Source: Schmidtea polychroa (taxonomy: Eukaryota). From it: a stretch of DNA of 64,000 nt. Shown piece after piece: positions 3,910-50,659 of this stretch; the first letter of the stretch is position 1, and each line of letters begins with the position of its first letter. The notes beneath the pieces are model-generated. The model saw only the letters and a list, made by a program, of their open reading frames with translations. It made no database searches and was not told where the DNA came from. The stretch spans positions 20,646,001-20,710,000 of the forward strand of contig CM097885.1 of NCBI GenBank assembly GCA_044892525.1, written 5' to 3'. The position numbers and the translations under genes were made by a program.

Positions 3910-4031
3910 TGTATAAATGGAATGATAAAAGTAGTGATAATAGTAGTAACATGTACAAAATAAAAGTAGTAAATTAAAACAATATGTAGAAAATCAAAAA
4001 CAAGTATGATGACCATGTATTATAAATAGGA

Positions 4032-4487: not shown

Positions 4488-4576
4488 GAGAGAAAGGAGT
4501 GAAATGTAAATAATCCTGTAAATAAATAGAGTTATAATCAAGTAGAAATCCCAAGATTAAAAATCATCATTGTAGA

Positions 4577-6001: not shown

Positions 6002-6141
6002 ACGGATAGAAGGGAACTGTAAATATTTTGTAAAAACGATGTAAAGCAAATATAAAATTATTGTATACAGTAAAGTAACTTACCAAAACTATAAAAATTA
6101 GAAAAAGAAAATGCAAAAAGAAATGATGAAATTTATTATAG

Positions 6142-7320: not shown

Positions 7321-7402
7321 CAAAAATTAAAATTCCGTGTATAAAGTGTAGATAATAAATGTATGAAATAATAGTGGTAGTAATAGTGTAATTATTTAGA
7401 CA

Positions 7403-9001
7403 ATGAATAAAGAATCACAAACCTATGTGGAAACCGAGATGCAACAACTGGAACAGTACAAATCCATCATACAAACATACGAAGCAGAAAGAGTAAAGAG
7501 AGAAATAGAAATGTACAAAACCATGTATGAGAAAAAGCAACAAGAATTAGAAGTGGAGAAGGCGGAAGCACTGGCAGCAAAGGAGAAGTGGATGAAACAG
7601 GTAGAGGAATTAACCGAGGATGTGAGAAATACCTCAACATACCAAGAATTGGAGGAAGAGCTCTCGAATTTACGAACTCAGCGGATTATGGAGATAGTTG
7701 GGTTATGCGGAGAGATAATAATGCAGAAGGCACAAATTAGAGAAGCAAAGGAACAATACGAGGAGGAACAGCGTAAATCAGAACGAATAAAATTACAGGC
7801 GCAACAATGGAAGGGGAAAAATGAAACACTCCTAACAAGGCAGAATGATAGCCACGAACATCAAATACGAAATTACAAGGCCGAACTAAAAGAAGTAAAG
7901 GGCAAATGCGCAATGATGAAAGAAAAATGGGAAAGATGCAAAAAGACCCTAAACGAAGTCAGAGGGCAAGGGAGGAGAACACCGCATAGAGAACCAATTG
8001 TTAAAGATAACGTATTAGAACGAATTAACACACAAATAAAGATACAAGCTCAGAAATGGAAGTATAAATACCTAGGAAGTCAAACTCAAGTGCTCTATTG
8101 GAAAATCAGTAGCAAGGAACAACTGCGATTACGAAAAGCAGACCAAGAATTTTACGAAACAAGAGCTGCACAGCGAGAAGAAGAGGAAGTAGAGTGGAGA
8201 AAACGACAGCAGAAATTCGAAGAAACCGAAAAGTGTCTCAAGCACCAAGCCCGAAAATGGAAAGAGAATTGGAAAGAAACCAAAGAGGAATTAAGACAGT
8301 TGCCTATGAAACTGATGGAAAGAGACGAATTTAAAATGTGGGAAATGATAGAAAACCAAAAGGAGGAGATCAGCCGATTGAGTAGAGAACATAGAATCAA
8401 GACGCGGACCAGCGACGGTAGACGGAGAGTTATAAAGAAACAGACTCGAGAAATAAGAAGATATGAATACCAGGAAAAGAGATGGGAACAACAATTGACA
8501 GACCAAGATCGACAGATCCGACAATTTCAAACAGAGGTAGAGGAAGCTAATCAAGAGATGAACGGATATAAAGGTATGTACACCCAAAGGGATGTGAATT
8601 GGAAGCATCAGATTGCGCTTAATGCGAAATGTAGAGAGGAGTGCGATAAGGCAATTCAACAAGCCAAACAGGAAACCGAGATAATAAAACGATGCTTCGA
8701 AGAAAATGAAGCGAATCTGAGAGCAGAAATCGAGAAGTTGAAAATGCTTGAAAAAACCCAACGATTGGAAGAGGAATTGGATGAGATGATAGAAAACGAA
8801 AGTAGATTAACGTTTCTGTTGGATGAAGAAATAAACATCTCAACGGAATTGCGGGAGGAAGTAGATCGGTTAAGAAGACAACCACCAATATTATTAATGC
8901 CACTCTACCCGATCCCGTTGCAAGTGCCACAGCCTGCCGAAGTCACAACAGATGAAGGCTTCGAAGAAAATAACGAACAAAATAACGAAACATGGATTTA
9001 G
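7403..9001 (+). CDS. Long coiled-coil cargo protein (532 aa)
   Basis: E/K/Q/R-rich helical sequence throughout with a Pro-rich tail; no catalytic motif recognised. Confidence 0.75.
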   Translation: MNKESQTYVETEMQQLEQYKSIIQTYEAERVKREIEMYKTMYEKKQQELEVEKAEALAAKEKWMKQVEELTEDVRNTSTYQELEEELSNLRTQRIMEIVGLCGEIIMQKAQIREAKEQYEEEQRKSERIKLQAQQWKGKNETLLTRQNDSHEHQIRNYKAELKEVKGKCAMMKEKWERCKKTLNEVRGQGRRTPHREPIVKDNVLERINTQIKIQAQKWKYKYLGSQTQVLYWKISSKEQLRLRKADQEFYETRAAQREEEEVEWRKRQQKFEETEKCLKHQARKWKENWKETKEELRQLPMKLMERDEFKMWEMIENQKEEISRLSREHRIKTRTSDGRRRVIKKQTREIRRYEYQEKRWEQQLTDQDRQIRQFQTEVEEANQEMNGYKGMYTQRDVNWKHQIALNAKCREECDKAIQQAKQETEIIKRCFEENEANLRAEIEKLKMLEKTQRLEEELDEMIENESRLTFLLDEEINISTELREEVDRLRRQPPILLMPLYPIPLQVPQPAEVTTDEGFEENNEQNNETWI

Positions 9002-9129
9002 TCGAAGGGAGATGTTACATGTAAAAAAAAAAAAAAAACCATAAAGCCAAAACCAAATAAAATTACAAAACCAAAAATTCAAAATAAAAGGGGGACGAAA
9101 GGAAATATGATGTGTATATTTTTGTAGAT

Positions 9130-9894
9130 ATGAATTATTTAAAAGAAAGAGAATCAACGAGTAACGCAAGAAAATCAATTGACCAACCTGAACAAAGCCA
9201 GAATACGATACCAATCAAACAAGAACCGATGAAATATTATAGCAATAAATGGAGAGTCAGCAAGTTGTTCAAAACAAAAATTGCAAATCAAAATGTAGAG
9301 ATTACGAGATTGAGACAGCACATTGTTCAATGAAGACGATTAATAAACACTGTCAAGCAAGAAATTTTGAGGGAAATAAATGAATCGAAACTAAAAGAGA
9401 CGGAAAATAAAAACCTGAGACAAGAGATAGTAGAGTTGAGAGCTCAGGCAGTAATCGAAGACTATTGGAAATCAGAAACAAGGAAGTTGAAAAAGATTGT
9501 GAATATCGACCAAGTTTATATCAAACAATTGGAAGCACAATACGCTTATGCAAAAACGAAAATGCGAGAAAGTAAAAAGGTCGACAAGAGAAACGCAAAA
9601 CTCAAGGAGGAGATCAAGGAACAAAGAGAAGAAACAGAAAAACAATGGAAGTTGAAAGAAAATTACCGGAGAATCCTAAATCAAAAACGACGAAGCATGC
9701 AAGCATTGCAGACGGCAATAACCATCAAGCAGAGAAAATGGAAAAGTAAAGAGAAGCAATTACAAGAAATACCGGAATTAAAGAGACAGTTGATAGCAAC
9801 GCAACTCGAAGTAATAAGAATGAACGAGTTGAGCAAAAGACGAGCACCTGAACCTCCCGTAAAGTTAAGGGATGAGGTCGGTGACTCCCAATAA
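9130..9894 (+). pseudogene. Coiled-coil cargo ORF interrupted by one in-frame TGA (9331-9333)
   Basis: ORFs 9112-9333 and 9367-9894 are in the same frame, separated by a stop and 11 open codons. The likely ATG is at 9130, after TTTGTAG. Confidence 0.7.
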
Positions 9895-9970
9895 ATGAGA
9901 CAAAATAACTGTGTAAATAAATTGTAAATAAAGCCAAGTAATTATTATTAACGTATATGTATATGTAAAG

Positions 9971-10957
9971 ATGAGAAGCGTAATCGTGGTGATAATTATA
10001 ATGACAATGCCAAGAATCCTGCATGCTGAAGAATCAATGATCAGATGCCAGAAAGAATACCCATACCGTAGAGAAGATAGCACCTGTAGTAGCTTTAAAT
10101 CGATCTGCGAAAAACCCAATGAGGAATGCGAACAAATCAAGTTACAATGTTCGCAATGTCCACAAACAACCGAAAGTTCGACGGAAATGCAAATGGCTCA
10201 GACAATAAAAACAATATTAGAACAAGAAATGAAAGTTATCAGAACCCAGATAACAACATTAGCCAAACAATGTCAAAGTCAGAAATCAAAGAGAGAATCC
10301 CAAACAGATCCAGCCGCAATGAGAATGATGATAAAAATATTAGAGGGGATAAAACAACAAGTAGTAACAGCTACCAATGGACGTTCAAGTAATTACGAAA
10401 TGGTAGTGAAATCTTTAAAGGAAATGAAAGGAAAAATAACTTCCATCATCAAAGAGGAACCCAGCATTAAAAATGAGGTAACGAAAACCTTGAAAGAAAT
10501 GACAAGGGAAATCTTAACGACCATAAACAAAAACCCAATGAACTCCGAGAAGATGATTAAAACCCTGGAGGAAATAAAGAAAGTTGTCACCTCGGAAGAA
10601 AACAAATTCAACAAACCCGAAAAATCAGAGATTATAGATACAACCCAATTGGGAGAAATCGTAAACAAACCCAAAGTAATAGAACCGAGAGAGTCTGAAT
10701 CTCTCACAATATTGATCCTATTAGCGGCGAGCCTAATGATAAACATCACCGTACTGAGCCTGATTGCACTCAAACCCAATTCCAGTAAAGAAAGAAACAA
10801 AACCCTCAAACTAAAAGAACAATCAAGAAGTATTCGTATCCCAATGGAAGAACAGCTAATCCAAACAACGAACCAACCAAGATACTTCAAATCTTCCCCA
10901 AACATTGAAACCAGAGCCGTCATCGAGACGAGATCCCGAACAACAGAGTTCTATTAA
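9971..10957 (+). CDS. Type I membrane protein: signal peptide, Cys-rich N-terminus, helical repeats, TM helix, ~60 aa cytoplasmic tail
   Basis: MRSVIVVIIIMTMPRILHA signal; 6-7 Cys; repeats such as MMIKILEGIK / MVVKSLKEMK / VTKTLKEMT / MIKTLEEIK; TM LTILILLAASLMINITVLSLIAL. Confidence 0.8.
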   Translation: MRSVIVVIIIMTMPRILHAEESMIRCQKEYPYRREDSTCSSFKSICEKPNEECEQIKLQCSQCPQTTESSTEMQMAQTIKTILEQEMKVIRTQITTLAKQCQSQKSKRESQTDPAAMRMMIKILEGIKQQVVTATNGRSSNYEMVVKSLKEMKGKITSIIKEEPSIKNEVTKTLKEMTREILTTINKNPMNSEKMIKTLEEIKKVVTSEENKFNKPEKSEIIDTTQLGEIVNKPKVIEPRESESLTILILLAASLMINITVLSLIALKPNSSKERNKTLKLKEQSRSIRIPMEEQLIQTTNQPRYFKSSPNIETRAVIETRSRTTEFY

Positions 10958-33987: not shown

Positions 33988-35257
33988 AGTAGAGAGAAGT
34001 GTGCTCCATGACTCATCGTTTTTTGTCATTTTTTTGCACACCCCCCCGATGACTCAGCGCAAAACAAAGACATATGACTCATCGATGACTCATCCATAGC
34101 AACAGCGGTAACTGGGTCAAGGTTATATGACTCATCCATAGCAACTGGGTCAAGGTCACATGACTCATCCATAACAACCGCGGTAACTAGGTCAAGGTCA
34201 TTCTATTTTTAGTAACTAGGCCAAGGTCATTCTATTTTTAGTAACAATGTCACGTGACGTCATCGATGACTCATCAAGGTCATTCTATTTTTAGTAACTA
34301 GGTCATGTGACGGCATCGATGACTCGTCAAGGTCATTCTATTTTTAGTAACAAGGTCATATGACTCATCATTTTTGGAACAAAGCCAACTGACTCATTAT
34401 TAAAGTATGTATGACTCATCATTTTTTAAACAAAGACATATTTAATATTTAAATAAATACATTTAAACAAATATTTAAATAAATACATTTAAACAAATAT
34501 TTAAATAAATACATTTAAACAAAAATTTAAATAAATACATTTAAACAAATATTTAAATAAATACATTTAAACAAATATTTAAACAAAGACATTTAATCAA
34601 ATATTTAAGTACATTTAAACAAAGACATATAGACAAAGACTCATCGATGACTCATAGTTTAGATAGGGGGTTTCTTTTTTTTTGCATACTCCCCCCCCTT
34701 GTATGACTCATCGATGACTTTTTTGAACAAAGACCAATCATTTATTTTTAAAAGAAAGACTCATCACACGACTCTAATTTTTAGAAGACTTCTTTTTTGG
34801 TAAACCAAAATTTATTGNNNNNNNNNNNNNNNNNNNNNNNNNNNNNNNNNNNNNNNNNNNNNNNNNNNNNNNNNNNNNNNNNNNNNNNNNNNNNNNNNNN
34901 NNNNNNNNNNNNNNNNNNNNNNNNNNNNNNNNNNNNNNNNNNNNNNNNNAAAAAGTTTGTTTTCATAAAATTTATTTCATAAATCATATAATTTGTTTTC
35001 ATAAAAACTGGTTTCATAAAAAAAAAAAAATAAAAATTAATCATAAAAAAATTTCATTATAAAAAAATTTAAATCATAAAAAAATAATAATTACCTCATT
35101 TGAAAAGATGTACAAAGTATCGATAACATCTAACCAATCAGAATTGGATATTATCGATGCTTTGTTTTCTGAATATGACTCATCGATGATTCATTGTTAC
35201 TAACTGAGTAATTTCTACTCACATAAAGACATGCAATACAAGTGCAATACAAGTGCA
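33988..35257 (+). repeat. Left terminal inverted repeat (>=1.27 kb; inner end lost in an N gap)
   Basis: Reverse complement of 49528-50659 apart from sub-repeat copy number. Confidence 0.95.
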
Positions 35258-35560
35258 NNNNNNNNNNNNNNNNNNNNNNNNNNNNNNNNNNNNNNNNNNN
35301 NNNNNNNNNNNNNNNNNNNNNNNNNNNNNNNNNNNNNNNNNNNNNNNNNNNNNNNNNNNNNNNNNNNNNNNNNNNNNNNNNNNNNNNNNNNNNNNNNNNN
35401 AATCAACAAAATATATTTAAATTACAAATTTACAATTTTACATTGTCATTTTTACAAATGTCTGTTGCATTGATTGTTTCTTACAATCTTGGCTTCATTG
35501 ACAACTATTAATAATAAAAAATAATAATTATAATAATAATTATTATTATTACCGAAATGA

Positions 35561-38500
35561 TCAGTAATCTTCTCCGTCAAAATTGTCGTCATCATCATAT
35601 ATAAAAGTGTCCCCTATCCGATAATGCCCATATGCCAAACTCTTGTTTTTCAATTTCCAATACCGCTTGTCATCTCTATTTGTCAGCGCCTTCTTAATGT
35701 TTTTTATGCTGTACAATTGATGATTTTTGGATGCAATGCGGAATTGTGGCACAGAGTAAACCTTATTGTTAAAATAACAATCACGATAGGAATTGTGATC
35801 TAAGCCAGTATCTTTCAACGTGACAGATTTTGCTTTAAGAGTTTCTTTATCACCTAATAAGCTGTAACACTTGGGACGAAGAAACACCCACTCCTTATAT
35901 CTCAATCCTTTATTCTCGTCTTTGAATTTTCCAATGACGGAATCTAGTGCTCTACTATATAAAGGATGTTGTGGGTTATAATTAGATGTGTCAAGCAAGG
36001 AGTCACGAATCATGGCAGGTAAGAGAATTTCAAGACTACAATTTTTAATTTCCAAAAAGAAAGAGTCTGTATCACTAGCTACTATATTAATTTCACAGTT
36101 AATCTCATCGCGATATTTTTGCAATTCATTATACTGCAACTGATACATTCTCAGTTTAGAAAGATCAAGTACAGTTTGCCCGATGTAGCTGGGCCTATCT
36201 AAACATACAGACTCTTTCATAAGCAAAACCGAAATCAAATCATCGTCTATCCTAGTAGATTTCTTAAATGCCGGTTTTGAGGCATATGTGATAAGTTTTT
36301 GTGCGGAATTGCACAGTCGTAAGTTAATACGTTTTTTCAAGTTCTCAACAGTTTTTCCATACAAACTGTTATTGAGCAACTTGTAATAGTCTTTATCGAG
36401 CGGTGTTATGGATGCGGCTCGTAGTTGTGTGTTGGTATCTATGTATTTCTTGAAGACAGTGCTTTGTGTATACCTAATAGCCCTATGTACCTTGGTAACA
36501 ACAACACCTAACTGAAGAAAGATTTGGAGAAGTCGCCAATGTAAAACATAGTGTGTTTTCGGATCGTGTGTAAGTAGCAACTTCTCCACTTTAGAAAAAG
36601 GTGGGCACATCTTACCAGGAGCTACCGGAAAATCATCTAGTTTGTCATGGATAGATTTCGGTATTTTTAAATCTACTTCTATAGTATAGCCATAATCAAG
36701 TTGATTTAAATCTTCCGTTGTGCACTCAATTAATAATCTCTCTAAAGCAATGTCATCAGTCACCCATTCAAAACCACCGTCGGGAAGCTTTTGTGATAAA
36801 GCCCATCCATACAGGTTGTTGATGTCAATATACAACAACTCTGTATTTTCATCACTACTAACAAAATGTTTATTCACAAACGTTATCCCACCTCTAATCC
36901 CACCTTCAAAGAAATTATACATTTCCATGTCGGTGAGAAGCTCAATCGGTTTATCAAGACTTAACAAAGTAGAACTCCAAGAAAGACTGGGGATACCTAG
37001 GAAATTCAAAGGCTCAAGCCTATTATGAGCAATACTCTTAGCTCGGAATTGCTGAAAAAAGTCAGCCAACAGAAATACATCTAATTTCAAATAGACCATC
37101 ATATAATCCAAAAGGGAATTACATGATGTCTCTTGCCAGATTAGTTTTGCTTTATTGTATTCATCATCGGATACATCACTCCATTTAGGGGGCAATTCTA
37201 ATGTAGAAATTAATACATCAAGGGAAGTTGCTACATCATAAGGGAAAATCCCTTTACTCTTAATAATAGGCCCTCTAAACTCAGATTCTGTCAAAGGTAA
37301 TGTGTTAAGGGTTGAGACAGCATTTTTCAAAGACGAATTTACAAACTGACAAGAATCTATAAATTTCACAGTCAGGGAATCAATATGCACAAAAAGAGAT
37401 AAAAATTTTTCACTTGTCACCGGTATACAAGAAATATGCCAGGACTTATATTTAGCCAAGCCAAATTTGAGGATATGATGGAGATCATACCCTCTCAAAT
37501 TATGAAAGACTACAGGTAGTGTGTGGTATATTTTCCTGGAAAGATTACAAGTGTTGCAAGCAGCACCAAGGAATTGACCGGTAAAGTGATCATGATCCCT
37601 GACTGGTTTAACTAATAATTTTTTACACAAATGACAGTTTGTGCTGTTATTAAAATTAATTTGGTCATTTTCTGTGAATATCATTTTCTTATTTTTATTT
37701 TTATAATAATAGGGAGTTACAATCTTTTTAGCGATATCATTAATTTCTTTTAAAAATTCGTCTATACAAGAAAGGCCTATGAATGATTTATAAAATTTTG
37801 CGCCTGTATTATTATTTATACATAAAAGTCCAGCCGAAATGGGTAAATGTTTCTGATAATATTTAGAATCTTTAGGAAGGATTGCCTCAAAATCGGCATA
37901 AATAACAAAAGGAGGAGTAATCATTTTACTATAGTCTGTGAATTCTAATAATGGATCTTTTGGTAGTGTGTACATTGTGGTTCCTAATTGGTTTCGTTCA
38001 CAAAGACCTTGATGTTTAATAAAACTATCTTCAAATCTGAATCCATTCAGACATCTAGGACACCACTTACAGTAAATACGAACAGAACTTATTGATGAAT
38101 TTCGGCAATTAAGAAAGATGTTTAAATCAGATATAGCGACGTAATGGTAGGTTTTCCGATTCTGTAATAATAACAAATTTAGACAAGTACCTCCTACTAT
38201 TTTACTGCGATAAATTATATCTATAAAAGGATGTTTCATGATGGGACCCGAAATTAACCCAGTTTCGTCATAACTTAAAACATTAATTGAATAACCTGGG
38301 TTTTGTCGTTCAAATTTTGAGATATTTGATAATTTCATTGGCATATCTGCCGGGTTATATATCAGATCTGAAAGGTTATAAGAACTAGGCAGATGACGCA
38401 ATTCATCAGGAGTACTATCATATTTTATAAGAGCCAAAACCGAGTAAAGGAAACAAAATTCGTCATCATTATTTACATTTATTATACATTTTTTCCTGAT

Positions 38501-39388
38501 TAATGTTTTCGGGGTTTCAATATATTTACGACCACTCAACCTACTAATCTTTGAATATTTTGTCACAATAAAACTAATGTATTCTATTTTGTTAATGGTT
38601 CAATTACTTCCCTTTTCATTTATTTTACTAATTTTTTCATTTAAAAGAGAGATACCATCATCAATAAATGTGTCGCTCCATACACGAGCAGAGTTTGAGA
38701 TTATGAAAGACTGAAATTCATCATTTTTCTCAAACTCTACTTTAATACAAAATTGAATTTTTACTGATTTCATTTTATTTACAATTTCTAACAATTTTTC
38801 TATGAGAACGTCAGGAACAGAAAGAATTTTACAATTCAAGGAAGATATATCCAACTTAACTATTACATGGGAACTATTCAGGTCGGAAACTACGTCGACT
38901 ATACCACTACCTACTTGGGGTACAACATCACTATTTTCAAATTCACTATTTTCAAATTCACTATTTTCAAATTCACTATTTATAACTTCACTATTTATAA
39001 CTTCACTATTTACAACTTCACTATTTACAACTTCATTACTTACAACATCATCGTCGTCTTCACTAATGACTATTATTTCTTTCATCTTTTTTGTGGGAAT
39101 TTCTGTGGGAATTTCTAAATGTCTTTTATTACCTATTATTCCTATTAATCTATTGACTGTTTCCATTAATTGTCGATTTTGTAAGTTTTCGGTGTTCCTA
39201 TTATTAGTTGATGATATATATTTTTGATACGCAATTTTGAAAACTGATTTTTTAGAAGGCATATATTGGGTTAAATGATTACGATGTTTATCATAAAATT
39301 CGGTATATGTCGATGTTTCAAGAGTTTGGCATGTAGGACATAACAAGTATGTTTCACTTTTATATTCATGACCATAATATTTTTCCAT
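35561..39388 (-). CDS. Protein-primed family B DNA polymerase (pPolB), ~1275 codons, one in-frame TGA at 38600-38602
   Basis: FADFE-like exo I (IYADFE); RDHDHFTGQFLGAACNTCN; VFHNLRGYD; YIDINNLYG; KLLNNSLYGK; SDTDS. ORFs 38600-39388 and 35561-38566 are in frame (GSN*TINKIEY). Confidence 0.95.
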
Positions 39389-40405
39389 AATATCGTCACA
39401 GTCATGATGTGTAGCACTGTTACAAAAGGTTGGATATTTATAACCTATAAAATAAGTAAAATAGTATTATTATCAAAATTATTATTATTATTATTATCAA
39501 AATTATTATTATTTATTATTACTATATAATCTGAGTTTATACGACAAAATATTCTGTCCCTCCCTTGCTCATAAGTGTATTATATTTAAATTTATTTTAA
39601 TTAAATAAAAACATATTCATTTTCTTTATAAAAATTAATTTCATTATTTGTTTCATAACAAAATTGACTTCATACATTTTCTTTATAACAAAATTGACTT
39701 CATATTAATTTAAAAAATCATAATAATTTAAAGTAAATTAATTTAAAAATCATAATAATTTAAAGCATATTAATTTTAAAATTTTAAAAAACCTACATTT
39801 AGGTTTCTTGCACGCGAGATTGTGTACAGCATTATTTACTAAAAAATCATAATAATAATAATAATTTAAAAATTAAATTTACCATAATTTCCGGAAACAT
39901 TATTTTCAATTCCATTACTTGCTGAAAAATTATAAGTTCCCGAAACACTATTTTCATTAATGTAGACTAAAATATAAATAAAAATAAAAACATATTAAAA
40001 AAAAAATTACCCATACGATTTCTTCGAATCATTTCCTTGATTTCATTTGAAATATTTTGCATTTTGAATAAATGAAAAAGAATTACAAAAACATAGATTA
40101 TATATGTAACGTTTATCCAATCAAAATGCAGATAGGATAGAAAAAATTAACGCACACATATTCATGTCTTTGTTTAAAAAAGAATGAGTCATCGATGACT
40201 CACATAGTAACAAATAATGTCTTTGTTACTCAAATAAAGACATGCAATACAAGTGCATGAAATTNNNNNNNNNNNNNNNNNNNNNNNNNNNNNNNNNNNN
40301 NNNNNNNNNNNNNNNNNNNNNNNNNNNNNNNNNNNNNNNNNNNNNNNNNNNNNNNNNNNNNNNNNNNNNNNNNNNNNNNNNNNNNNNNNNNNNNNNNNNN
40401 NNTTA

Positions 40406-40790
40406 TTAAACAAAATTATACATTGATAACAACCATGCAAGGCAATGTTGGCCACAAGTAATTGAAAATGGATTTTGATACCGAGTTCGATTATATACAA
40501 TAGGTTTACCAATAGTTTGCAATTTACTAATTAATAAATTTGGGTAATAATATCCAAAGGGATCGAATGCATATACTCGGTTTGGTTTCACATATACAGC
40601 AATCCAATGTTCACCTCCTAAACTAGATGTATGAGTATTGACGATTATGGCTTGATTATTTCTCAAATATGGAATTTTATCCAGTGGATAAACTCCAAGA
40701 AATTCGTTTCCCAATAATTGAGTACCAATTCGAGACACCTGAATAGAACTAATCAATAAGTTAAATTATAAAATAAAAATCTTACTCCAT
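40406..40790 (-). CDS. Adenain-like cysteine protease; probable exon 1 at 40786-40790 and a 37-nt intron at 40749-40785
   Basis: IVNTH..GGEHWIAV, FDPFG, and Q..SITCGQHC (His-Asp-Cys). Splicing GTAAG..TTAG gives the start MDSIQVSRIG. Confidence 0.88.
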
Positions 40791-40820
40791 AAAAAACTTT
40801 AATCTTTTAAATTTCTTCAT

Positions 40821-42047
40821 TTATACTAGTACAGTTCGATTTGCAGTAATTTGGATTTCATTTTCAAAAACCCCATAGATTATTACATGGACTGGTTCAG
40901 TAGTTGCTTTACCGAACTTAATATCCAATCTCAAATTGCCACTTTGAGGTAATTGACTTTGATTTAAATCAAAATCTGGAGCCAGAACAAATGTGAAAAA
41001 TGGATAGAATGTTTTGAATTCTTCCAGACTTATACCACAATTAAGATTTTTATCCAAATATCCTAAATTTCTGACAAGACTTTGTATATATGAAGTACAA
41101 TAATTATCATTATCAAAATCTTGAGTATAAGTTTCTCGATAATCAGTATTTTTCGATAATGAAAGAGAAGTTACACTAAAGTGTTTGAATTTTGATGAAG
41201 ATGTATCATAAGATCCGTTATATTGAGCTTCACTTTGAAAAGTTACAAGGATAAAATTAGGCATTCTTCGATCTCCAAATATTTGCTCCTTGTAAAAAGA
41301 TGATGCTCCTTTAGCAATTGCAAATGATACAATTTCTTTTGTTTTTATCGGATAAATTGCATGTTTGGTATTTAATCCAATTTGATGTCCCGCTAATACA
41401 AACGATTCACATCGAACTCTTCGAACCATTAATTTGGCATCGAGTAATATTAATTTAGGTGCTGCACCTGCAACTCCAGTTGATAATGACAATGCAGAAT
41501 CAGATCTTTTCAATCTCATATGTACATTAACACCTGGTAGTAAATATTTGGGTTGATCCATAAAATCCAATTGTAGAGATGAACACATGTTGAAAGTTTT
41601 TGAGCCTTTAATCCACTTTTTTCGATCATCAGATACACAATATCCCATTGGAGTTAGACAAGTATCTTTAGTATCATTATTATAATTTAAAATAGTTTCG
41701 ATAATTGCCTTGTGAGCATATGTATTGTTTCCACCCTCAATTTTAATGTTATTAAATCCAAGAATAACATCTTTAAAGAGAGTATGAAACAAGAAATTAT
41801 TAGGTTCAGTTGTATCATCTGCAGCTAATGCTTTATTGTCTTTATCTACAACTTTTATTTGAACATACAACAAAGTATCGTTCAAATCTAAATATTCTGT
41901 TTGAGAACCATTAATGTAAAATTCCACATCATTTCTACTATCGGTAATAGAATTCATTGGAAATACATCTTCAAATCCTCCATATTCGATAACCGCCTGA
42001 GGCGATGGTCGATCAAATAGACATAATTCAGATTTACCGCAAATCAT
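40821..42047 (-). CDS. Major capsid protein (Polinton PY, double jelly-roll)
   Basis: KSELCLFDRP..VEFYING..YLDLNDTLLY N-terminus; 408 aa; conserved position next to the protease. Confidence 0.85.
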   Translation of the reverse strand: MICGKSELCLFDRPSPQAVIEYGGFEDVFPMNSITDSRNDVEFYINGSQTEYLDLNDTLLYVQIKVVDKDNKALAADDTTEPNNFLFHTLFKDVILGFNNIKIEGGNNTYAHKAIIETILNYNNDTKDTCLTPMGYCVSDDRKKWIKGSKTFNMCSSLQLDFMDQPKYLLPGVNVHMRLKRSDSALSLSTGVAGAAPKLILLDAKLMVRRVRCESFVLAGHQIGLNTKHAIYPIKTKEIVSFAIAKGASSFYKEQIFGDRRMPNFILVTFQSEAQYNGSYDTSSSKFKHFSVTSLSLSKNTDYRETYTQDFDNDNYCTSYIQSLVRNLGYLDKNLNCGISLEEFKTFYPFFTFVLAPDFDLNQSQLPQSGNLRLDIKFGKATTEPVHVIIYGVFENEIQITANRTVLV

Positions 42048-42433
42048 TCTTCAAATATGGTTCCGTGTCCTTTCATTCGTTTGTTTATATGCCTTCTCCC
42101 TCTCTTGCGTTTAGTTCCCATACTTGTTTTAATTTCACTTTCAAATTTACGTTTTACTGGTACCAGTGCTGGTTCAGTTTTAAACATACCAGGTATTACT
42201 TTACTTATTTCAGCAATTGCATTTGATTTCAACGATGGTAATATTTTCTTGTCATTCATAATTACATCTTTTGCAGTTTTCATACCGAAATTACCAATAC
42301 GTTTAAGAATTGGTAACGCAAATCTACCAATTGTTCTCAACCACCCACTTCCGTACTGTTTACCAACAAAATATGGTAATTCGCCACCACTTTGGCTACC
42401 ACTATACATACTAATAATATCAGAATTAGCCAT
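42044..42433 (-). CDS. Small conserved Polinton basic virion-core-type protein (QxGxG motif)
   Basis: QSGGELPYFVGKQYGSGWLRTIGRFALPILK; K/R-rich tail; overlaps its neighbours. Confidence 0.7.
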   Translation of the reverse strand: MANSDIISMYSGSQSGGELPYFVGKQYGSGWLRTIGRFALPILKRIGNFGMKTAKDVIMNDKKILPSLKSNAIAEISKVIPGMFKTEPALVPVKRKFESEIKTSMGTKRKRGRRHINKRMKGHGTIFEE

Positions 42434-43472
42434 CTACTTTACGAAAATGTAGTGTCAAATGAGTTTTTGAATCTTTTGCAAATTCGATTAATTGACCAGA
42501 ATCATCTCTTATATTTATTTCTATATTGTTTATACAGGATGTTGAAACAGGCAAATACATGGGATTTTCTACATTGATTTGTACAACATCATCTTGTTCA
42601 TGTTTCTCAACCCAAATAGATTTCAATAGAGGAACCAAAGAATCACCAACAATTATGGGTTCAATAATATTAGTATAGAGAAACATTTGATGATGAAGTT
42701 TAATTATTTTCGGTTTATTCATACCTACATTTAATTTTCCATCTTGAATATATGTTCCTTTTGATAATCCTAATGTTTTTATTAGATTTTTATCAAAAGT
42801 AATTTCAGTAATATCAGTATTCAAACTGAATTTGAACAAAGTATTGTCTACTAATTCCAATGATTTAAATATTGATCCACAATTCTGAATTAAATATGAT
42901 TGTAATTCCTCCAATTTAGAAATGTATAAATTCTCATTAAACGTATATGTATTTTCAGTTTCACCCTCAAACTCAACTTTCATTGAAATTGTCTCATATC
43001 GCGCTGCTACTTTGGTAAATCTCGGCCGTAGTACTTGGAATATATTAGTATGATTTCTATTACTCTGACTTGTTAATTCCAATCGTTTTGCCATTGCTAA
43101 ACTATCAAATTTTATAGTAAAGGGATGATATTTACATTCAACTATTAAATATTGACGATCAATATACATTTTGACAATTGAATCGGAAGGACCAATATCA
43201 ATTCGATCTTCTACATTATCAATGACAAAAGAGATATTTCTTTGCGTCTCTTTCTTTTTATATTCAATTTTAGCTTTACTATAAATTGGAAAGAGATTGT
43301 ACACAAATGTAAAGTCAAGGAGAGCAACTTCCCAATTACCATTTAAATAAATCGGATTTTGGAGATTGACCATAAATTTACTGGCAGTGTTTTCTGGATG
43401 TATATTCGGACAACTATTACTTGGCAAAATAATGTAAAAATTCATTTTACGAGGTCTCGAGACGATATCCAT
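42426..43472 (-). CDS. Minor capsid/penton protein (Polinton PX)
   Basis: FYIILPSNS..PENTASKF..WEVAL at the N-end; LYTNIIEP..VGDSLVPLL..NPMYLPV..IEINIRDDSG..LTLHFRK at the C-end. Confidence 0.85.
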   Translation of the reverse strand: MDIVSRPRKMNFYIILPSNSCPNIHPENTASKFMVNLQNPIYLNGNWEVALLDFTFVYNLFPIYSKAKIEYKKKETQRNISFVIDNVEDRIDIGPSDSIVKMYIDRQYLIVECKYHPFTIKFDSLAMAKRLELTSQSNRNHTNIFQVLRPRFTKVAARYETISMKVEFEGETENTYTFNENLYISKLEELQSYLIQNCGSIFKSLELVDNTLFKFSLNTDITEITFDKNLIKTLGLSKGTYIQDGKLNVGMNKPKIIKLHHQMFLYTNIIEPIIVGDSLVPLLKSIWVEKHEQDDVVQINVENPMYLPVSTSCINNIEINIRDDSGQLIEFAKDSKTHLTLHFRKVDG

Positions 43473-44623
43473 GATGGGTTTTTATATCCATGCCATTTGA
43501 CATAGTATTGTTTATCCTTACCCACCATTTTAGTTTTCAATATTTTTTGAATTCTAAATACTTTTGGGGGAGGAATGACTTGTAATTCTTGCTCATAAAA
43601 TTTCCCTTGTACAATGTTATTTTCAGAATCTCTGATGACATACATCACAGGGTTCTGGCTAGTATTTATTTTCGAAATTACAAAGACTTCATCACTCCAA
43701 TTTGTATCGAAATTTTTAATAAATGGTGATGCACTAATTTTACTAATTCTAACATGGTCACCAACTTTATATTTCGGTTTTGTAATTTTTTCAGATTTTT
43801 TAGAATAGAATGTTTTTGATGTGATATCAACCGGTCTCAATCCATTAAGTCCTCGATGTGACTAGTTATAACTGGTTATAATTTTTGGTAAAACCAATAC
43901 CCATTTTTTATTACCTTGATACACGAACAATTTCTTTAATCTATCTCTCAAGGTTCTGTTAAATCTTTCAACATGAGCAGCTTTGTATTGAGAATGTACC
44001 GAGTAGTGATTTATTTTCAGTTTATCGAGGATTTGCTTAACTTTACTGTTNNNNNNNNNNNNNNNNNNNNNNNNNNNNNNNNNNNNNNNNNNNNNNNNNN
44101 NNNNNNNNNNNNNNNNNNNNNNNNNNNNNNNNNNNNNNNNNNNNNNNNNNNNNNNNNNNNNNNNNNNNNNNNNNNNNNNNNNNNNNNNNNNNNNNNNNNN
44201 NNNNNNNNNNNNNNNNNNNNNNNNNNNNNNNNNNNNNNNNNNNNNNNNNNNNNTATTAGGATGTCCATTTTTAAATAAAATATTAATAGCTTTGGACATT
44301 TCATCTGCAGATTTTGACTTGACTGGTATTGCTCGTGCAAACCTGCTGTATACATTAATACACGTTAAAATATATTTATACCCCTTGTTAATTTTTGAAT
44401 AGGGTATCATCTCCATCAAATCCATTTGCCACAAATCATTTATTCCATATGTTTTATACGCTCTTGTTGGAAATCTTTTCTGCATTGGTTTGTTCAAACT
44501 GTACGCTAGTTGATTTGATAACCACTTCTGGGTTTCTTTTTTCGAATTCGGAACTCTTTTCATTAATTTTGCCACTCCACCGAAACCGGCTTCGTCTTCT
44601 GGGTTCGTCCAAATCTTCTCCAT
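43442..44623 (-). CDS. Retroviral-type (RVE) integrase with C-terminal chromodomain; one in-frame TAG at 43862-43864; part hidden by an N gap
   Basis: LWQMDLMEM, KAAHVERFNRTL, YKVGDHVRISK and YYVKWHGY; the two ORFs are in frame. Confidence 0.92.
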
Positions 44624-44678
44624 TACAACAGGAAGATTTAAAATTCAAATTAAGATTTGGTAATGATTGACCCATTGT

Positions 44679-45170
44679 TTATGATGATGATTTTAATAAA
44701 CCTGCCCCTCCCAATAAAGATAATGCTATTGGTATCAAGGCTGCAATGAAGCCTCCTTGTTGTTTATATATGATTTTACGCATACGTTTTTTATTTCTAG
44801 TATTTACTAATGATAATAATGGTTTCTTGTGTCTGTTCAAAATCTTTTTATTTGATGTACTTATACGGAATTTACCTTTAACAACTTTAATTAAAATAGC
44901 AAGTAAATCATCAATAACATAATTTGGAAAAGACTGTAAAATATTCATTCTTCTCATACTGGGAGCCTTAAGTAATGCAATGAAAAACGGAAAACTACGA
45001 TGAGAATTACTCGGCGGAATATGATTACTCGGTGGAATACGATTACTCGGCGGAATATTATCAATAAGCAATTTTTTTGATGGTGTGAAACTAGTTTTTG
45101 GTGGAATCTTAACCACTTTTGCAGGTTTCCTTCTTGTAGGTTTTGTCTTTACACGAGTTTTTAGTAACAT
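44679..45170 (-). CDS. Basic protein ending in a GGFIAALIPIALSLLGG amphipathic segment (resembles adenovirus pX-type/Polinton core proteins)
   Basis: K/R-rich body with IPPSN repeats; C-terminal QQGGFIAALIPIALSLLGGAG after a protease-like GG site. Confidence 0.7.
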   Translation of the reverse strand: MLLKTRVKTKPTRRKPAKVVKIPPKTSFTPSKKLLIDNIPPSNRIPPSNHIPPSNSHRSFPFFIALLKAPSMRRMNILQSFPNYVIDDLLAILIKVVKGKFRISTSNKKILNRHKKPLLSLVNTRNKKRMRKIIYKQQGGFIAALIPIALSLLGGAGLLKSSS

Positions 45171-45191
45171 GATTGATAATTTATTTTGGTT

Positions 45192-45815
45192 TTATCTTTG
45201 TTTATATACTATAGCTCCTTCCTTGTTAAATATATCTGTTCTTACTCGTAATTCATCAGGACACTGTTGTGTAAAATCTAGAAAAATATATCCATGTGGG
45301 GATTTTGTTGCATCGACAAATGCATTCATTAAGAAATTTCGATTATTTGGATATGCTTGCCTTGCAAGAAAGTCAATCACTGTAGCATCTCTCGGATTTT
45401 TGAAAACAACTAAATATTGAACATTCAAATTACGAGTTCGGTGAGATCCACCTTGATGAAAAAGATTTTGAGTGATAAAAATTACAGTGACACCTTTATG
45501 TCTACTAATTTTTGTAAACAAATTATTAAAATCCTTTTCTTTATTTGCTTCTTGATATAAATCATCAATAATAATCACATCACCCTGTCGTAATCTAGAT
45601 GACCAGTTTTTATCGAACCCTTTTATGATTGTCATTTTGATTTTACAAAACTGATCTTGTGTCATTCCGCTTTCATCATCAGCTCCCCTATGCCAATAAA
45701 TTTTATTAAATTTTGACTTGAATAATTTTGATTGTAATAATTTACAAACAAACAATGTTTTCCCGCTACCACTCGGGCCAACGATTTGGTATACTGCATC
45801 ATTTCTTAATTGCAT
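45192..45815 (-). CDS. A32/FtsK-type genome packaging ATPase
   Basis: Walker A GPSGSGKT; Walker B IIIDD; ISRH; FITQN. Confidence 0.93.
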   Translation of the reverse strand: MQLRNDAVYQIVGPSGSGKTLFVCKLLQSKLFKSKFNKIYWHRGADDESGMTQDQFCKIKMTIIKGFDKNWSSRLRQGDVIIIDDLYQEANKEKDFNNLFTKISRHKGVTVIFITQNLFHQGGSHRTRNLNVQYLVVFKNPRDATVIDFLARQAYPNNRNFLMNAFVDATKSPHGYIFLDFTQQCPDELRVRTDIFNKEGAIVYKQR

Positions 45816-45923
45816 TTTTTATTTTTAATTTTAAAATATCTAGTTATTGTTTATATTAGATGATTTTAATGAACTCTTGCTAAAGTTGTATATAAAGAGT
45901 AAAATTTCATAAATGATTTAATT

Positions 45924-46361
45924 ATGCTTGCAAATATAAATTATCGAGGAAATTTTGATGTTTCAAAAATGAGGTTCCCACTAGGAAAACCACAGCAAAT
46001 TGTCGATAGAAGCGGGAAATATCCGATAATATTTTTCAAGACTGGCAAATGCAGAATTATGGGATGTAAGGAACCATTGGATATTAATAAATTACAATAT
46101 CGAATCAATAATATTAAAATTCAATCAATTACCGTTACTATGGATATGGGACATACTATCAATTTATACAAAATATCGAGAAAATGTGATTGTATGTTTG
46201 AACCGGAATTGTTTCCGGCATTAAGACTATTAAAATATAACCCTATATGTGTCAATGTGTTTTCAAGTGGAAAGGTTGTCATGCTTGGGTTGAGAAATTT
46301 AGACTATAGGGAATTTGTTAACAATGTTCGGAATGAGTTAAATTCATTGGTCGATTTCTAA
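45924..46361 (+). CDS. TATA-binding protein (TBP)-like protein, 145 aa
   Basis: Two TBP half-repeats: IIFFKTGKCRIMGCK, and FEPELFPAL..VNVFSSGKVVMLG. Confidence 0.8.
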   Translation: MLANINYRGNFDVSKMRFPLGKPQQIVDRSGKYPIIFFKTGKCRIMGCKEPLDINKLQYRINNIKIQSITVTMDMGHTINLYKISRKCDCMFEPELFPALRLLKYNPICVNVFSSGKVVMLGLRNLDYREFVNNVRNELNSLVDF

Positions 46362-46450
46362 TTGGTTAATTTCTAATTGGTTAATAATAATAATATTAAC
46401 TGTTTATTGTTTAGATGTCATTAATAATGTATACTAGCGCGGCAAAATCA

Positions 46451-46824
46451 ATGTCTGAGATCGATAATTACGGTAAATTTTTAATTTATATATATTTTTT
46501 ATATATTTTATAGATGAATATTCCAAAGTGATGTTAAATTGCCTCAAGTATTTCTATCCTCAATTGAATGAAATTCTGAAGGACAGGGATCCAGAGATTA
46601 TACCAGATTTGGTATACAATGCAACAAGAATCTGGATGTTCGATATATTAAATCAATTCCAATGGGATATCAAGATCGACAGAATGCAGAAAGAAATGGA
46701 ACCAGAATATCCATGTATCATTGGATGCAGTTGTTGTGCTGATCGTTATCAGCGATATGTAGAATGGAATTTAGTAAAAACACTTAGAAGATATTACTAT
46801 TCTAGGATTGTTGATTTAAATTAA
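46451..46824 (+). CDS. Unknown small protein, two exons (46451-46472, 46514-46824)
   Basis: A 41-nt GT..AG intron joins MSEIDNY to DEYSKVML in frame; CIIGCSCC motif. Confidence 0.6.
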
Positions 46825-46876
46825 TAAATATTTTTTATGTATTTTGTTTTTTTTTTTTTATATATTGATGACCAAA

Positions 46877-46917
<41 letters not shown>

Positions 46918-47141
46918 TAATAATAATAATAATCATACATGTGCAACATTAATGCAATTTAAACAAAGACACATTAATGCAAACCATGTGCAACATTGAT
47001 GCAATTTAAACAAAGACATGTGCAATACAAATGCAAAGCATGTGCAACATTGATGTAATTTAAACTTTAATCTGATTGGTTGTTCCATTTATTTTGAAGG
47101 TATAAAAACCCTGTACCATTTCATTTTAATCATAATTCACG

Positions 47142-47549
47142 ATGGTCAAGAAAAGCACTGAAAAACCGAAAGATGAACTTGTTCAGCCTGTTCAAATGTT
47201 CCACAACTACAAAATGTATTTTTTAAAAGAAGAAATCAATATGAAATTGGTTGCACCGGTCAAGTTAATTCCAACTCAATTTCAATTCTTATCCGGCACG
47301 CTTTCAATGGTAGATGTTAAAACCATAGATGATGTTTTCAAACGGTTGAATTCAAATCTATCATGTAATCAAAATGCATGGTTCAACAACCGATATGCAA
47401 AATTTTATGATGCCTTTGATGAAATCAGTTTCAAAGAAAACGAAAATTGGTATATAACAATTGCAATCCAAGGATATAAAGTCGATAATAATGATGTGTA
47501 TTCTCCAATTTGGAAAATTATGTCTGCTAGGCTTTCACAACTATTTTAA
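47142..47549 (+). CDS. Unknown 135 aa protein, possibly an OB-fold ssDNA-binding protein
   Basis: Intact ORF with upstream CCAAT and TATA boxes. The beta-rich aromatic C-terminus (YITIAIQGYKV..YSPIWKI) suggests an SSB; this is inference only. Confidence 0.55.
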   Translation: MVKKSTEKPKDELVQPVQMFHNYKMYFLKEEINMKLVAPVKLIPTQFQFLSGTLSMVDVKTIDDVFKRLNSNLSCNQNAWFNNRYAKFYDAFDEISFKENENWYITIAIQGYKVDNNDVYSPIWKIMSARLSQLF

Positions 47550-47701
47550 TGTATTTAATAAATGTATATAATGTATTTTAATAAATGTATTTAATGTATT
47601 TAATCTTATTTATTTTATTAATATTAATGCAACAGTAATGCAAATTTAACAAAGACATTCTATAAACAAACTTACATTATAGTTTAAAAGTGTTAATAAA
47701 A

Positions 47702-48130
47702 ATGACTACAGAAAAAGGTTAATTTTGATTAATAACTTACCGAATTATTTATTATTTAGAAATTGTAATCAACTTTTTGTTGGAAAAATTGGCAGAAATA
47801 GCTGGTGTAAATGTTGAGGATATATTATCTGTTGCAAATGCATTAAATATAGGCTGGATAGTTGAAAGTCAAGATTCAGGATTTGATGAAAGTGAAGTGA
47901 GTCAAGAAACTGATGTAGAAATTGATGGAGAAAATGATGGAGAAAACACCCAAGAAATTAGTGAAAACACCCAAGAAATTAGTGAAAACATCCAAGAAAT
48001 TGATGGAGAAAACATCCAAGAAATTGATGGAGAAAACAATCAAGAACAACCTAACGATTGTATAGATCATGTAGTTGATAATATTATGAAATGTGGAGAT
48101 GACTATTGTGAATGTGTTAATAAATGTTAA
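47702..48130 (+). CDS. Acidic repeat protein, two exons (47702-47717, 47760-48130)
   Basis: A 42-nt intron joins MTTEK to EIVINFLLEK in frame; ENTQEIS/ENIQEIDG repeats; C-terminal CGDDYCEC. Confidence 0.6.
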
Positions 48131-48172
48131 ATTTTAAATTTTGTTTTTTATACATAAGAAAAATAACAAAAA

Positions 48173-48362
48173 TTAATATTTATTTAAATATTTAAATAAC
48201 ATATACAATAAAACAACTCCTGTTGTGAGTTTAATATAGTTTTTCATTTTTCTTTTGATTTCATCAGTTTCTTTAGCATTGCGGGCGAGTTGATTGAGTA
48301 TATCCCATCCGCCATTATCTTCTATCCATGGACTAAACTTGGATTTGATTATCTAAAAAAAA

Positions 48363-48402
<40 letters not shown>

Positions 48403-48703
48403 TTACTTCTAAAGACCACTGATAATAATGTTCTGAGTCATGTTGGCATTTCGCAATGATTATCTTCATGTAGGTGAACCCTACAATAATTCTTGTCCAT
48501 TTCATGTCTTCATCGCAGAGACATTGAAATATATTGTTAAAATAATTCTTCTTTGATTCAAGACAATCCATATCAAGCATTCTCTGGTAGTCGATATGGT
48601 TGCCTTCAATAATTTGTTCGGTCCGATTGACCAGGAAATTGAGGCTGTCGACTATATTCGCTGTGACTAGTCCATTTAGAACGTTTTCAATAAATTTAGA
48701 CAT
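48173..48703 (-). CDS. Bcl-2 family protein, two exons (48407-48703, 48173-48352), 158 aa
   Basis: BH1-like LCDEDMKWTRIIVGFTY in exon 1. After a 54-nt GT-AG intron, exon 2 encodes BH2 SPWIEDNGGWDIL and a C-terminal TM tail YIKLTTGVVLLYMLFKYLNKY. Confidence 0.88.
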
Positions 48704-48812
48704 TTTTTACAATAATTTTTAATATACTGTCTTATTTATACTACTGTGTGTGTAATATGATTCTGATTGGTTGATAGACTATAAATGTAAAACATAATAG
48801 ATTTGATACAAC

Positions 48813-49313
48813 ATGAAAACTATATTTCTATTGCTAATTATTATAAGGAGTGTGTGCTCACACAATACGACAATAACGGTGGAGTCTTTTAATAAATCAA
48901 TATGTATTTGTCCAAATACCGCCAAGTTGATGGATATTTTATATATTCTTGACAAACCAAAATGGGCAAAGCATCCAGGAAAAAGAATATCCCAAAGATT
49001 GGAGAATTTAGAAAACAGCTATGACCTATCTTTTGAATATATACAAAATATAAAATTTAAATTGATTGATCATATTGAGGTTTTCAATAACTCAATTGTT
49101 GAAAATAAAAAGAATATGAAAATTATTGATAAGAAACATGAACATTTGTTAAGAAAGATTGATTTAATAATATTCGAAATTCGAACAATAAAAGAATCGA
49201 TAGAAAATTTGAAAACCAATTCAACGTTACCAATTTCAAACAAGATGGCAGCAAATATGAGTACATCAATATTTAAATGGCCATTGTTAATTTTAAATTA
49301 TTTCATTGTTTAA
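48813..49313 (+). CDS. Putative secreted or GPI-anchored coiled-coil glycoprotein, 166 aa
   Basis: Signal MKTIFLLLIIIRSVCS; five NxS/T sequons; hydrophobic C-tail IFKWPLLILNYFIV; upstream GATTGG and TATAAA. Confidence 0.65.
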   Translation: MKTIFLLLIIIRSVCSHNTTITVESFNKSICICPNTAKLMDILYILDKPKWAKHPGKRISQRLENLENSYDLSFEYIQNIKFKLIDHIEVFNNSIVENKKNMKIIDKKHEHLLRKIDLIIFEIRTIKESIENLKTNSTLPISNKMAANMSTSIFKWPLLILNYFIV

Positions 49314-49527
49314 TAAATGTATTGATTTAAATTATCTTTTGTCTGATATATTATTATTATTATTGGCATAAATATTATTAATTTAATTATTATTATNNNN
49401 NNNNNNNNNNNNNNNNNNNNNNNNNNNNNNNNNNNNNNNNNNNNNNNNNNNNNNNNNNNNNNNNNNNNNNNNNNNNNNNNNNNNNNNNNNNNNNNNNNNN
49501 NNNNNNNNNNNNNNNNNNNNNNNNNNN

Positions 49528-50659
49528 ATGCACTTGTATTGCATGTCTTTATGTGAGTAGAAATTACTCAGTTAGTAACAATGACTCATCGATGAGTCAT
49601 ATTCAGAGAACAAAGCATCGATAATATCCAATTCTGATTGGTTAGATGTTATCGATACTTTGTACATCTTTTCAAATGAGGTAATTATTATTTTTTTATG
49701 ATTTAAATTTTTTTATAATGAAATTTTTTTATGATTAATTTTTATTTTTTTTTTATGAAACCATTTTTATGAAAACAAATTATATGATTTATGAAATAAA
49801 TTTTATGAAAACAAACTTTTTNNNNNNNNNNNNNNNNNNNNNNNNNNNNNNNNNNNNNNNNNNNNNNNNNNNNNNNNNNNNNNNNNNNNNNNNNNNNNNN
49901 NNNNNNNNNNNNNNNNNNNNNNNNNNNNNNNNNNNNNNNNNNNNNNNNNNNNNNNNNNNNNNNNNNNTTTGGTTTACCAAAAAAGAAGTCTTCTAAAAAT
50001 TAGAGTCGTGTGATGAGTCTTTCTTTTAAAAATAAATGATTGGTCTTTGTTCAAAAAAGTCATCGATGAGTCATACAAGGGGGGGGGAGTATGCAAAAAA
50101 AAAGAAACCCCCTATCTATATGTCTTTGTCTATATGTCTTTGTTTAAATGTACTTAAATATTTGATTAAATGTCTTTGTTTAAATATTTGTTTAAATGTA
50201 TTTATTTAAATATTTGTTTAAATGTATTTATTTAAATTTTTGTTTAAATGTATTTATTTAAATATTTGTTTAAATGTATTTATTTAAATATTTGTTTAAA
50301 TGTATTTATTTAAATATTAAATATGTCTTTGTTTAAAAAATGATGAGTCATACATACTTTAATAATGAGTCAGTTGGCTTTGTTCCAAAAATGATGAGTC
50401 ATATGACCTTGTTACTAAAAATAGAATGACCTTGACCTAGTTACTAAAAATAGAATGACCTTGACCTAGTTACCGTGGTTACCACGGTTGCTATGGATGA
50501 GTCATATAACCTTGACCCAGTTACCGCTGTTGCTATGGATGAGTCATCGATGAGTCATCGATGAGTCATATGTCTTTGTTTTGCGCTGAGTCATCGGGGG
50601 GGGGGTAGTGCAAAAAAATGACAAAAAACGATGAGTCATGGAGCACACTTCTCTCTACT
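49528..50659 (-). repeat. Right terminal inverted repeat (>=1.13 kb)
   Basis: Near-identical reverse complement of the left TIR, with an internal N gap at the equivalent position. Confidence 0.95.

Follow-up and report, generated by a model that had tools for sequence, protein, structure and literature searches.

We analysed a stretch of 64,000 nt from Schmidtea polychroa (assembly GCA_044892525.1, contig CM097885.1, positions 20,646,001-20,710,000 of the forward strand), referred to here as the window, for which the original prediction had proposed a TBP-like gene inside a Maverick. Such an element is present at 33988-50659. It is of complete length (16.7 kb), has AGTAG...CTACT ends and a 6-bp target duplication, TGTTGC, and its terminal inverted repeats of approximately 1.3-1.4 kb are identical in 963 of 970 aligned non-N columns. 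The element contains the following genes and features:

33988-35400, no strand: left terminal inverted repeat, preceded by TGTTGC; inner end approximate and partly masked
35561-39388, minus strand: family B DNA polymerase (PolB), with polymerase motifs in the sequence and no Pfam PolB match
40421-40790, minus strand: adenain-type protease (Pfam Peptidase_C5, E=3.2e-7)
40821-42047, minus strand: putative major capsid protein, 408 aa, so named from position and conservation; no Pfam match
42044-42433, minus strand: conserved basic 129-aa ORF, putative virion protein
42426-43472, minus strand: putative minor capsid (penton) protein, 348 aa, so named from position and conservation; no Pfam match
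43442-44623, minus strand: rve integrase with chromodomain (Pfam E 2e-6), partly N-masked
44679-45170, minus strand: basic 163-aa ORF, putative virion core protein; no Pfam match
45192-45815, minus strand: A32-type packaging ATPase (Pfam Pox_A32, E=1.2e-6)
45924-46361, plus strand: TBP-fold protein, 145 aa, with a full C-lobe bearing the EPELFP stirrup and an N-lobe without helices H1 and H2
47142-47549, plus strand: 135-aa ORF, probably a single-stranded DNA-binding protein (SSB-like), with a canonical TATA box and CCAAT upstream
48353-48703, minus strand: Bcl-2-like ORF (Pfam Bcl-2, E=4.5e-4, under the cut-off), with a canonical TATA box upstream
49390-50659, no strand: right terminal inverted repeat, followed by TGTTGC; inner end approximate and partly masked

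The terminal inverted repeats, the 6-bp target duplication and the Bcl-2-like cargo, together with PolB, the rve integrase, the A32 ATPase, the adenain protease and the putative capsid genes, are shared with the Mavericks, Polintons and adintoviruses described in the available sections of PMC8502044. In this copy the integrase is broken by an in-frame stop at 43862-43864 and PolB by another at 38600-38602. An apparent GT-AG intron follows the second codon of the protease gene and would imply nuclear transcription by RNA polymerase II. Homologues of the 163-aa ORF are found at 17 loci, the window counted in. The 135-aa SSB-like ORF, which adjoins the TBP gene in 20 of 74 loci, gives a model with a pLDDT of 90, and its best fold match, the SSB of phage Enc34, is weak (E=0.08). 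No Pfam match to TFIIB was found among 14 ORF pieces of the element, a screen that short, masked or very divergent ORFs could escape.

Several smaller features accompany these genes. A conserved 73-aa ORF at 44454-44675 (minus strand) starts with Met-Gly, overlaps the start of the integrase and possibly encodes a myristoylated virion protein. On the plus strand, a 97-aa ORF at 46430-46824 seems to possess a further exon upstream, joined by a short intron. Most other subfamilies carry it at 53-69% identity, and we saw it in this genome only. The Bcl-2-like ORF of this copy reaches into an (AAT)n repeat with its 3' end, and a 187-nt piece of terminal repeat, matching the right repeat at 90%, lies between the protease and the polymerase at 40200-40400. 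Within the terminal repeats themselves (33988-34660 and its mirror at 50100-50659) are many ATGACTCAT palindromes, which we take to be AP-1-like sites, and 26-bp AT-rich tandem units. Elsewhere in the window, positions 6-10957 (plus strand) are occupied by consecutive long ORFs, A-rich and all on one strand. Among them are an integrase that has ankyrin repeats, a protein with a TRAF/MATH domain and several orphans, and the whole looks like a large retroelement with cargo.

The compact open reading frame at 45924-46361 matches the Pfam TBP family (PF00352) in two stretches with an E-value of 3e-16 and 59.5 bits, against a curated cut-off of 22.9, and its best sequence match in the PDB is an archaeal TBP (E=2e-11). 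AlphaFold2, given an alignment of 59 sequences, returned a model with a pLDDT of 95 in which a curved antiparallel sheet forms a two-lobed saddle; the saddle fold expected for a TBP is therefore present in the predicted structure. Superposition of this model on human TBP with VIA-align aligned all 145 of 145 residues at a Z-score of 13.2 and an rmsd of 2.3 Å, and the first unrelated row after the TBPs appeared at Z 6.7. In a Foldseek search of the PDB at E<=0.001, TBPs made up 44 of the 44 matches listed, with TM-scores of 0.66-0.78. The two halves of the protein differ: a full TBP repeat makes up the C-lobe, and the N-lobe is cut down. Of the motifs on which the prediction rested, EPELFPAL spans residues 93-100. 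Two copies of the half-repeat motif are present, in the form FxxGKxxxxG (F38 KTGKCRIMG; F113 SSGKVVMLG), and neither fits the literal IFxxGKxxxxG. The proposed divergent orientation is likewise borne out, since the gene and the A32-type ATPase are arranged head-to-head, their start codons 108 bp apart. The 145-aa protein belongs to the TBP fold family and is not a canonical TBP.

To describe the surfaces of the protein we counted residues across 160 family members in yeast numbering, carried over through the plant-type TBP P0143. At the 15 DNA-contact positions that we tabulated, the letters agree with those in Table 1 of PMC12529657. TFIIB contacts TBP through the stirrup acids E186 and E188 (PMC7221094 and PMC10005294, available parts), and comparison of the sequences shows that both are kept: E186 in 150/160 members and E188 in 158/160, as E93 and E95 in the present protein. 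Three of the four intercalating phenylalanines that mark a canonical TBP are also kept in the 145-aa protein, with F116 found in 155/160 members, F190 in 159/160 and F207 in 159/160. The fourth, F99, is replaced by Pro in 149/160 and was aligned with Pro23 of this protein by both MAFFT and hhalign.

The remainder of the concave face is remodelled. V122 is Arg in 155/160 members and T124 is Met in 158/160; N159 has become Ser or Thr (159/160), V161 Thr or Ser (157/160), L205 Asn (159/160), V71 Asn (119/160) and I194 Arg (123/160). Judged from the aligned sequences, the predicted DNA-binding face is fixed family-wide in a new state, and its Arg and Met could impede binding of the usual kind in the minor groove. 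The altered-specificity mutant TBPm3 carries changes at three sites, I194 and L205 among them (PMC1636458, in part), and the likeness rests on these two because V203 falls in an alignment gap. In the N-lobe, no helix of four or more residues precedes residue 62 in the predicted model, and the linker has 19 residues versus 32. This trimming is graded, with a short linker in 116/160 relatives and a longer one in 44/160. The available part of PMC7221094 places the binding of TFIIA, TAF1, Brf1, Mot1 and NC2 on this lobe of TBP. A search of 7987 candidates of 348-2000 aa for fused forms, at E<=1e-10, found none, which is a weak test. The size range of 255-347 aa was covered solely by the family cluster search; in nine longer relatives PF00352 was the only domain seen.

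The gene is widespread. The S. polychroa genome contains at least 150 matches to it (150 of 4191 candidates were scored), of which 143 of the 150 are stop-free. Copies chosen by their capsid or protease gene carry versions of the TBP at 53-95% identity, and in this genome the TBP gene lies beside the ATPase in 12 of the 12 stretches so chosen that hold an ATPase; two further stretches (L118 and L125) have neither an ATPase nor a TBP gene. Outside this genome we obtained 69 matching proteins at 38-63% identity, one of them at 88%, and 61 clusters (50% identity) score E<=1e-30 against the TBP family. Homologues were expected in related Mavericks, and a Maverick core gene does accompany the TBP gene in 31 of 74 metagenome loci, and in 18 of the 20 of those that are at least 4 kb long. 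Five of the 74 loci matched at just 25-27% identity, and the two that were examined are two-lobed cellular-type TBPs; all five are excluded from the motif counts. Gene order differs between loci. The dN/dS ratio was 0.16-0.26 in four of four comparisons with other copies of this genome and 0.09-0.60 in 49 metagenome pairs with dS of 0.05-1.5. The TBP gene is under purifying selection, and it is a regular part of a broad Maverick lineage, not an oddity of one copy.

In a tree of 61 rows picked by hand, computed in a single search and with single exons as the host rows, the Maverick TBP family forms one side of a branch with support of 100/99, apart from cellular and two-lobed TBPs. A recent capture of the gene from the present host was considered and finds no support in this tree of hand-chosen rows and single host exons. 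The host has TBP genes of its own: three intron-containing genes (L096, L097 and L099; G000:C1:245.0 Mb and 41.96-42.0 Mb), one canonical and two more divergent and 37 kb apart. It also yielded no fewer than 13 matches to a divergent gene without introns that resembles TFIIB (about 301 aa, with a zinc ribbon and a TFIIB repeat); they are grouped in two clusters (G000:C3:38.2-39.1 Mb and C1:23.8-24.2 Mb; L143:4572-5477, L144, L145). No other long ORF is common to the three TFIIB-like stretches L143, L144 and L145.

The regions upstream of the packaging and putative virion genes share a non-canonical, TATA-like box, (T/C/G)ATAAAC(A). In this copy the box and the canonical TATA box of the TBP gene are arranged as follows:

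42083-42089, minus strand: ATAAAC box, 41 nt before the putative major capsid gene
42528-42534, minus strand: ATAAAC box, 100 nt before the 129-aa ORF
43510-43516, minus strand: ATAAAC box in the 3' end of the integrase, 43 nt before the putative minor capsid gene
44677-44683, minus strand: ATAAAC box directly before the 73-aa ORF (44454-44675) and 59 nt before the integrase ATG
44762-44768, minus strand: further ATAAAC box
45200-45206, minus strand: ATAAAC box in the 3' end of the ATPase, 35 nt before the 163-aa ORF
45849-45855, minus strand: ATAAAC box 39 nt ahead of the ATPase start; it and the TBP gene's TATA box stand back-to-back
45889-45896, plus strand: canonical TATA box TATATAAA, 35 nt before the TBP start, a putative early promoter

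The box thus precedes six genes of the packaging and virion block (ATPase, core, integrase, penton, 129-aa and capsid), and the TBP, SSB-like, Bcl-2-like, 166-aa and PolB genes have a canonical TATA box without it. The 108 bp between the starts of the ATPase and TBP genes hold one of each, back to back. The protease gene of this copy likewise has an ordinary TATA, being preceded by TATAAATG, and no ATAAAC box, which is found before the protease gene at four of seven other loci. All loci with virion genes share the one box.

To quantify this distribution we read 120 nt upstream of each gene after removing near-duplicates, short regions and uncertain starts. Among ATPase, core, penton, 129-aa and capsid genes, 51 of 52 such regions contained the box, a count that overstates independence because the ATPases form only two groups at 65% identity; the loci were all drawn via the TBP gene or from this genome and are related to each other. 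Three hundred shuffles gave a mean of 5.5 and a maximum of 13, the opposite strand gave 0/52, and upstream of TBP genes the box was found in 5/52. Unfiltered counts by ORF cluster were 22/22 for the ATPase, 10/10 for the capsid, 12/13 for the penton, 15/17 for the core and 3/64 for the TBP. The 73-aa ORF has the box upstream in seven of seven loci. Exceptions are three of six SSB-like genes that have the box and one penton gene (L068) that does not. Across the window as a whole BATAAAC is not enriched (48 versus 49 expected), and the signal is positional only. In other TBP-carrying Mavericks (L048, L054, L056-L059, L064-L081) the same box also precedes a phospholipase A2-like gene in 7/8 cases and an unclassified gene cluster of about 163 aa in 10/13.

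The position and letters of the box are constrained. The base before ATAAAC is T in 36, C in 12, G in 3 and A in none of the 51 cases, and the spacing from the box to the next ATG is 31-57 nt in 38 of 51. In six lineage representatives the ATPase box lies at -33 to -47, with flanks averaging 35% identity. Where genes abut, the box forms part of the preceding gene's coding sequence, and does so in two different reading frames. Ile-Asn is encoded as ATA AAC in 23/38 cases near the relevant gene ends versus 37/278 elsewhere. The codon test at the ATPase end gave box-type letters in 20/20, a result weakened because 9/13 [YH]K[QR] peptides elsewhere have identical letters.

We propose that a Maverick TBP made early probably reads the ATAAAC box and recruits host TFIIB and RNA polymerase II to the late genes. 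Host TBP would start the early genes, that of the element's TBP included, from ordinary TATA promoters. The Maverick TBP would then bind the (T/C/G)ATAAAC(A) box, which we infer to be a core promoter, before the packaging and putative virion genes, and its intact acidic stirrup would bring host TFIIB and RNA polymerase II to the virion genes. Loss of the N-lobe surface may allow escape from the host regulators TFIIA, Mot1/BTAF1, TAF1, NC2 and Brf1. According to the part of PMC1636458 available, the TBP N-lobe contacts the 3' half of the box; as this half holds the C, and as F99, V122 and T124 are changed, Arg44 is, speculatively, a candidate reader of the C:G pair. Of the two roles originally suggested for the protein, a late-gene activator or a decoy for host TBP/TFIIB, the activator gains from the promoter-like box before the packaging and putative virion genes, and the decoy has become less likely.

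A point against this mechanism is that the box lies one base off the usual TATA and could suit host TBP. The box might then be a real core promoter whose reader is host TBP, one of its paralogues or a different host factor, with the element's TBP acting elsewhere or assisting. The form TATAAACA is indeed near a TATA box, no fewer than three TBP paralogues and multicopy TFIIB-like genes are encoded by the host, and the comparison loci are all TBP-linked, with no TBP-less Maverick among them. Our searches for one in viral contigs gave no Maverick locus, whether the query was the ATPase itself, an alignment of ATPases or of capsids, or a degenerate pattern for the ATPase, and a scan of prokaryote genomes gave one match, which is unrelated. 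We nevertheless regard a host reader as unlikely: the C of the box does not vary, even though ordinary TATA boxes serve the neighbouring genes, and the element's own TBP has a DNA face that is invariant in its new state. GTAAACA, the variant that a forkhead-type factor would prefer by its consensus, occurs in 0/52 regions. The first base of the box varies (T, C or G), whereas host TBP prefers T there (PMC1636458, in part).

It is less probable still that the protein is a decoy or repressor that holds host TFIIB, or occupies TATA-like sites, and so damps host or early element transcription. Such a role would suit a nearly invariant TFIIB stirrup on a protein whose N-lobe regulatory surface is gone, and one intercalating Phe is lost, as in TRF2, which also lacks one and cannot bind TATA (PMC10005294, in part). 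A pure TFIIB sink, however, would not need an invariant DNA face, and it is the fixing of this face across the family that makes a decoy less likely; nor would a decoy explain why the box is mostly limited to packaging and virion genes. Moreover, the contact between TBP and TFIIB normally forms on DNA. A non-promoter signal, such as one that directs 3'-end formation of the gene upstream or works at the RNA level, with a coincidental link to the TBP, has in our view the smallest chance of the three. Most boxes do lie near the 3' end of the preceding gene and ATAAA resembles a poly(A) signal, but AATAAA is excluded because the base before ATAAAC is never A, the ATPase of this copy has the box without any upstream gene on its strand, and the spacing to the ATG clusters as described above.

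The proposed activation of late genes by the Maverick TBP can be set beside known systems. Canonical cellular TBPs bind TATAWAWR in the minor groove. With cellular TBPs (1cdw/5fur, human; 1ytb, yeast; 1mp9, archaeal) the protein shares the two-lobed saddle, the EPELFP stirrup of the C-lobe and the equivalents of F116, F190, F207, N69 and P191. It differs in having 145 versus 180 core residues, no N-lobe helices in the model, the F99 to Pro change plus six more fixed substitutions on the DNA face, and a 100/99 branch that separates the family from host TBPs. The TBP mimics of beta- and gammaherpesviruses act on TATT late boxes with host RNA polymerase II, as set out in parts of PMC12529657 and PMC12197705. 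KSHV ORF24 has polar changes at the same positions, V122, T124, V161 and L205 (PMC12529657, Table 1, in part), and ORF24, EBV BcRF1 and HCMV UL87 share with the Maverick system a viral TBP fold and a variant TATA box before genes that are here putatively late. According to the same two sources, again in part, ORF24 has 752 aa, binds RNA polymerase II directly, needs five more viral proteins, and keeps the four phenylalanines with an altered stirrup (L189 to Asn). The Maverick protein, in contrast, is a bare single domain of 145 aa with a host-like stirrup and no partner seen, lacking the N-terminal domain that binds RNA polymerase II and the additional C-terminal domain of the large herpesvirus proteins, and its box is ATAAAC instead of TATT, with late timing as the presumed counterpart. 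By analogy, its way of working is probably that of a herpesvirus TBP mimic, although it is not itself one.

The TBP homologues of NCLDVs also have the TBP fold, as the Foldseek matches indicate, and a poxvirus TBP/TFIIB-like factor is reportedly the subject of a published study. Like the Maverick protein, the NCLDV TBPs do not keep the N-lobe regulatory signature (PMC7221094, in part). Their stirrup acids have mostly diverged and most giant viruses with a TBP have a TFIIB of their own, according to the same available text, whereas E186 and E188 are nearly invariant in the Maverick family and no TFIIB was seen among the 14 ORF pieces of this element.

A TBP label appears in the Fig. 5 legend of PMC8502044 (2021) for one related virus, which may or may not carry this family, and the same label is present in the preprint 10.1101/697771, each source being available in part. 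The sections of PMC8502044 examined contain neither a promoter box nor a mechanism. TBP or TATA was not found in PMC11161782 or PMC10120064, in the available main text of 10.64898/2026.06.19.733378, or in the available portions of PMC11131425 (main text and one supplement), and Polinton was not found in the accessible supplements of PMC7221094. In literature from which subscription journals were mostly absent, we found no publication that describes a Maverick TBP together with a cognate box.

Taken together, our data lead us to lean, if only slightly, towards a one-protein early-to-late switch across a broad Maverick lineage, in which a respecified TBP would act on its own ATAAAC box through host TFIIB and RNA polymerase II, having shed the surface on which regulators bind. 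The timing of Maverick capsid genes is poorly known, and particle formation is a long-standing question. If the switch operates as proposed, elements long filed as transposons would run a viral early/late programme, testable with one small protein and short reporters, and the box would serve as a sequence mark for finding virion genes and their start sites. Among viral late-transcription systems based on a TBP mimic it would rank as the smallest; it would be convergent with the herpesvirus one and form a natural altered-specificity TBP/TATA pair. For transcription biology, the protein is a naturally trimmed TBP with predicted altered specificity that has kept a host-like TFIIB surface.
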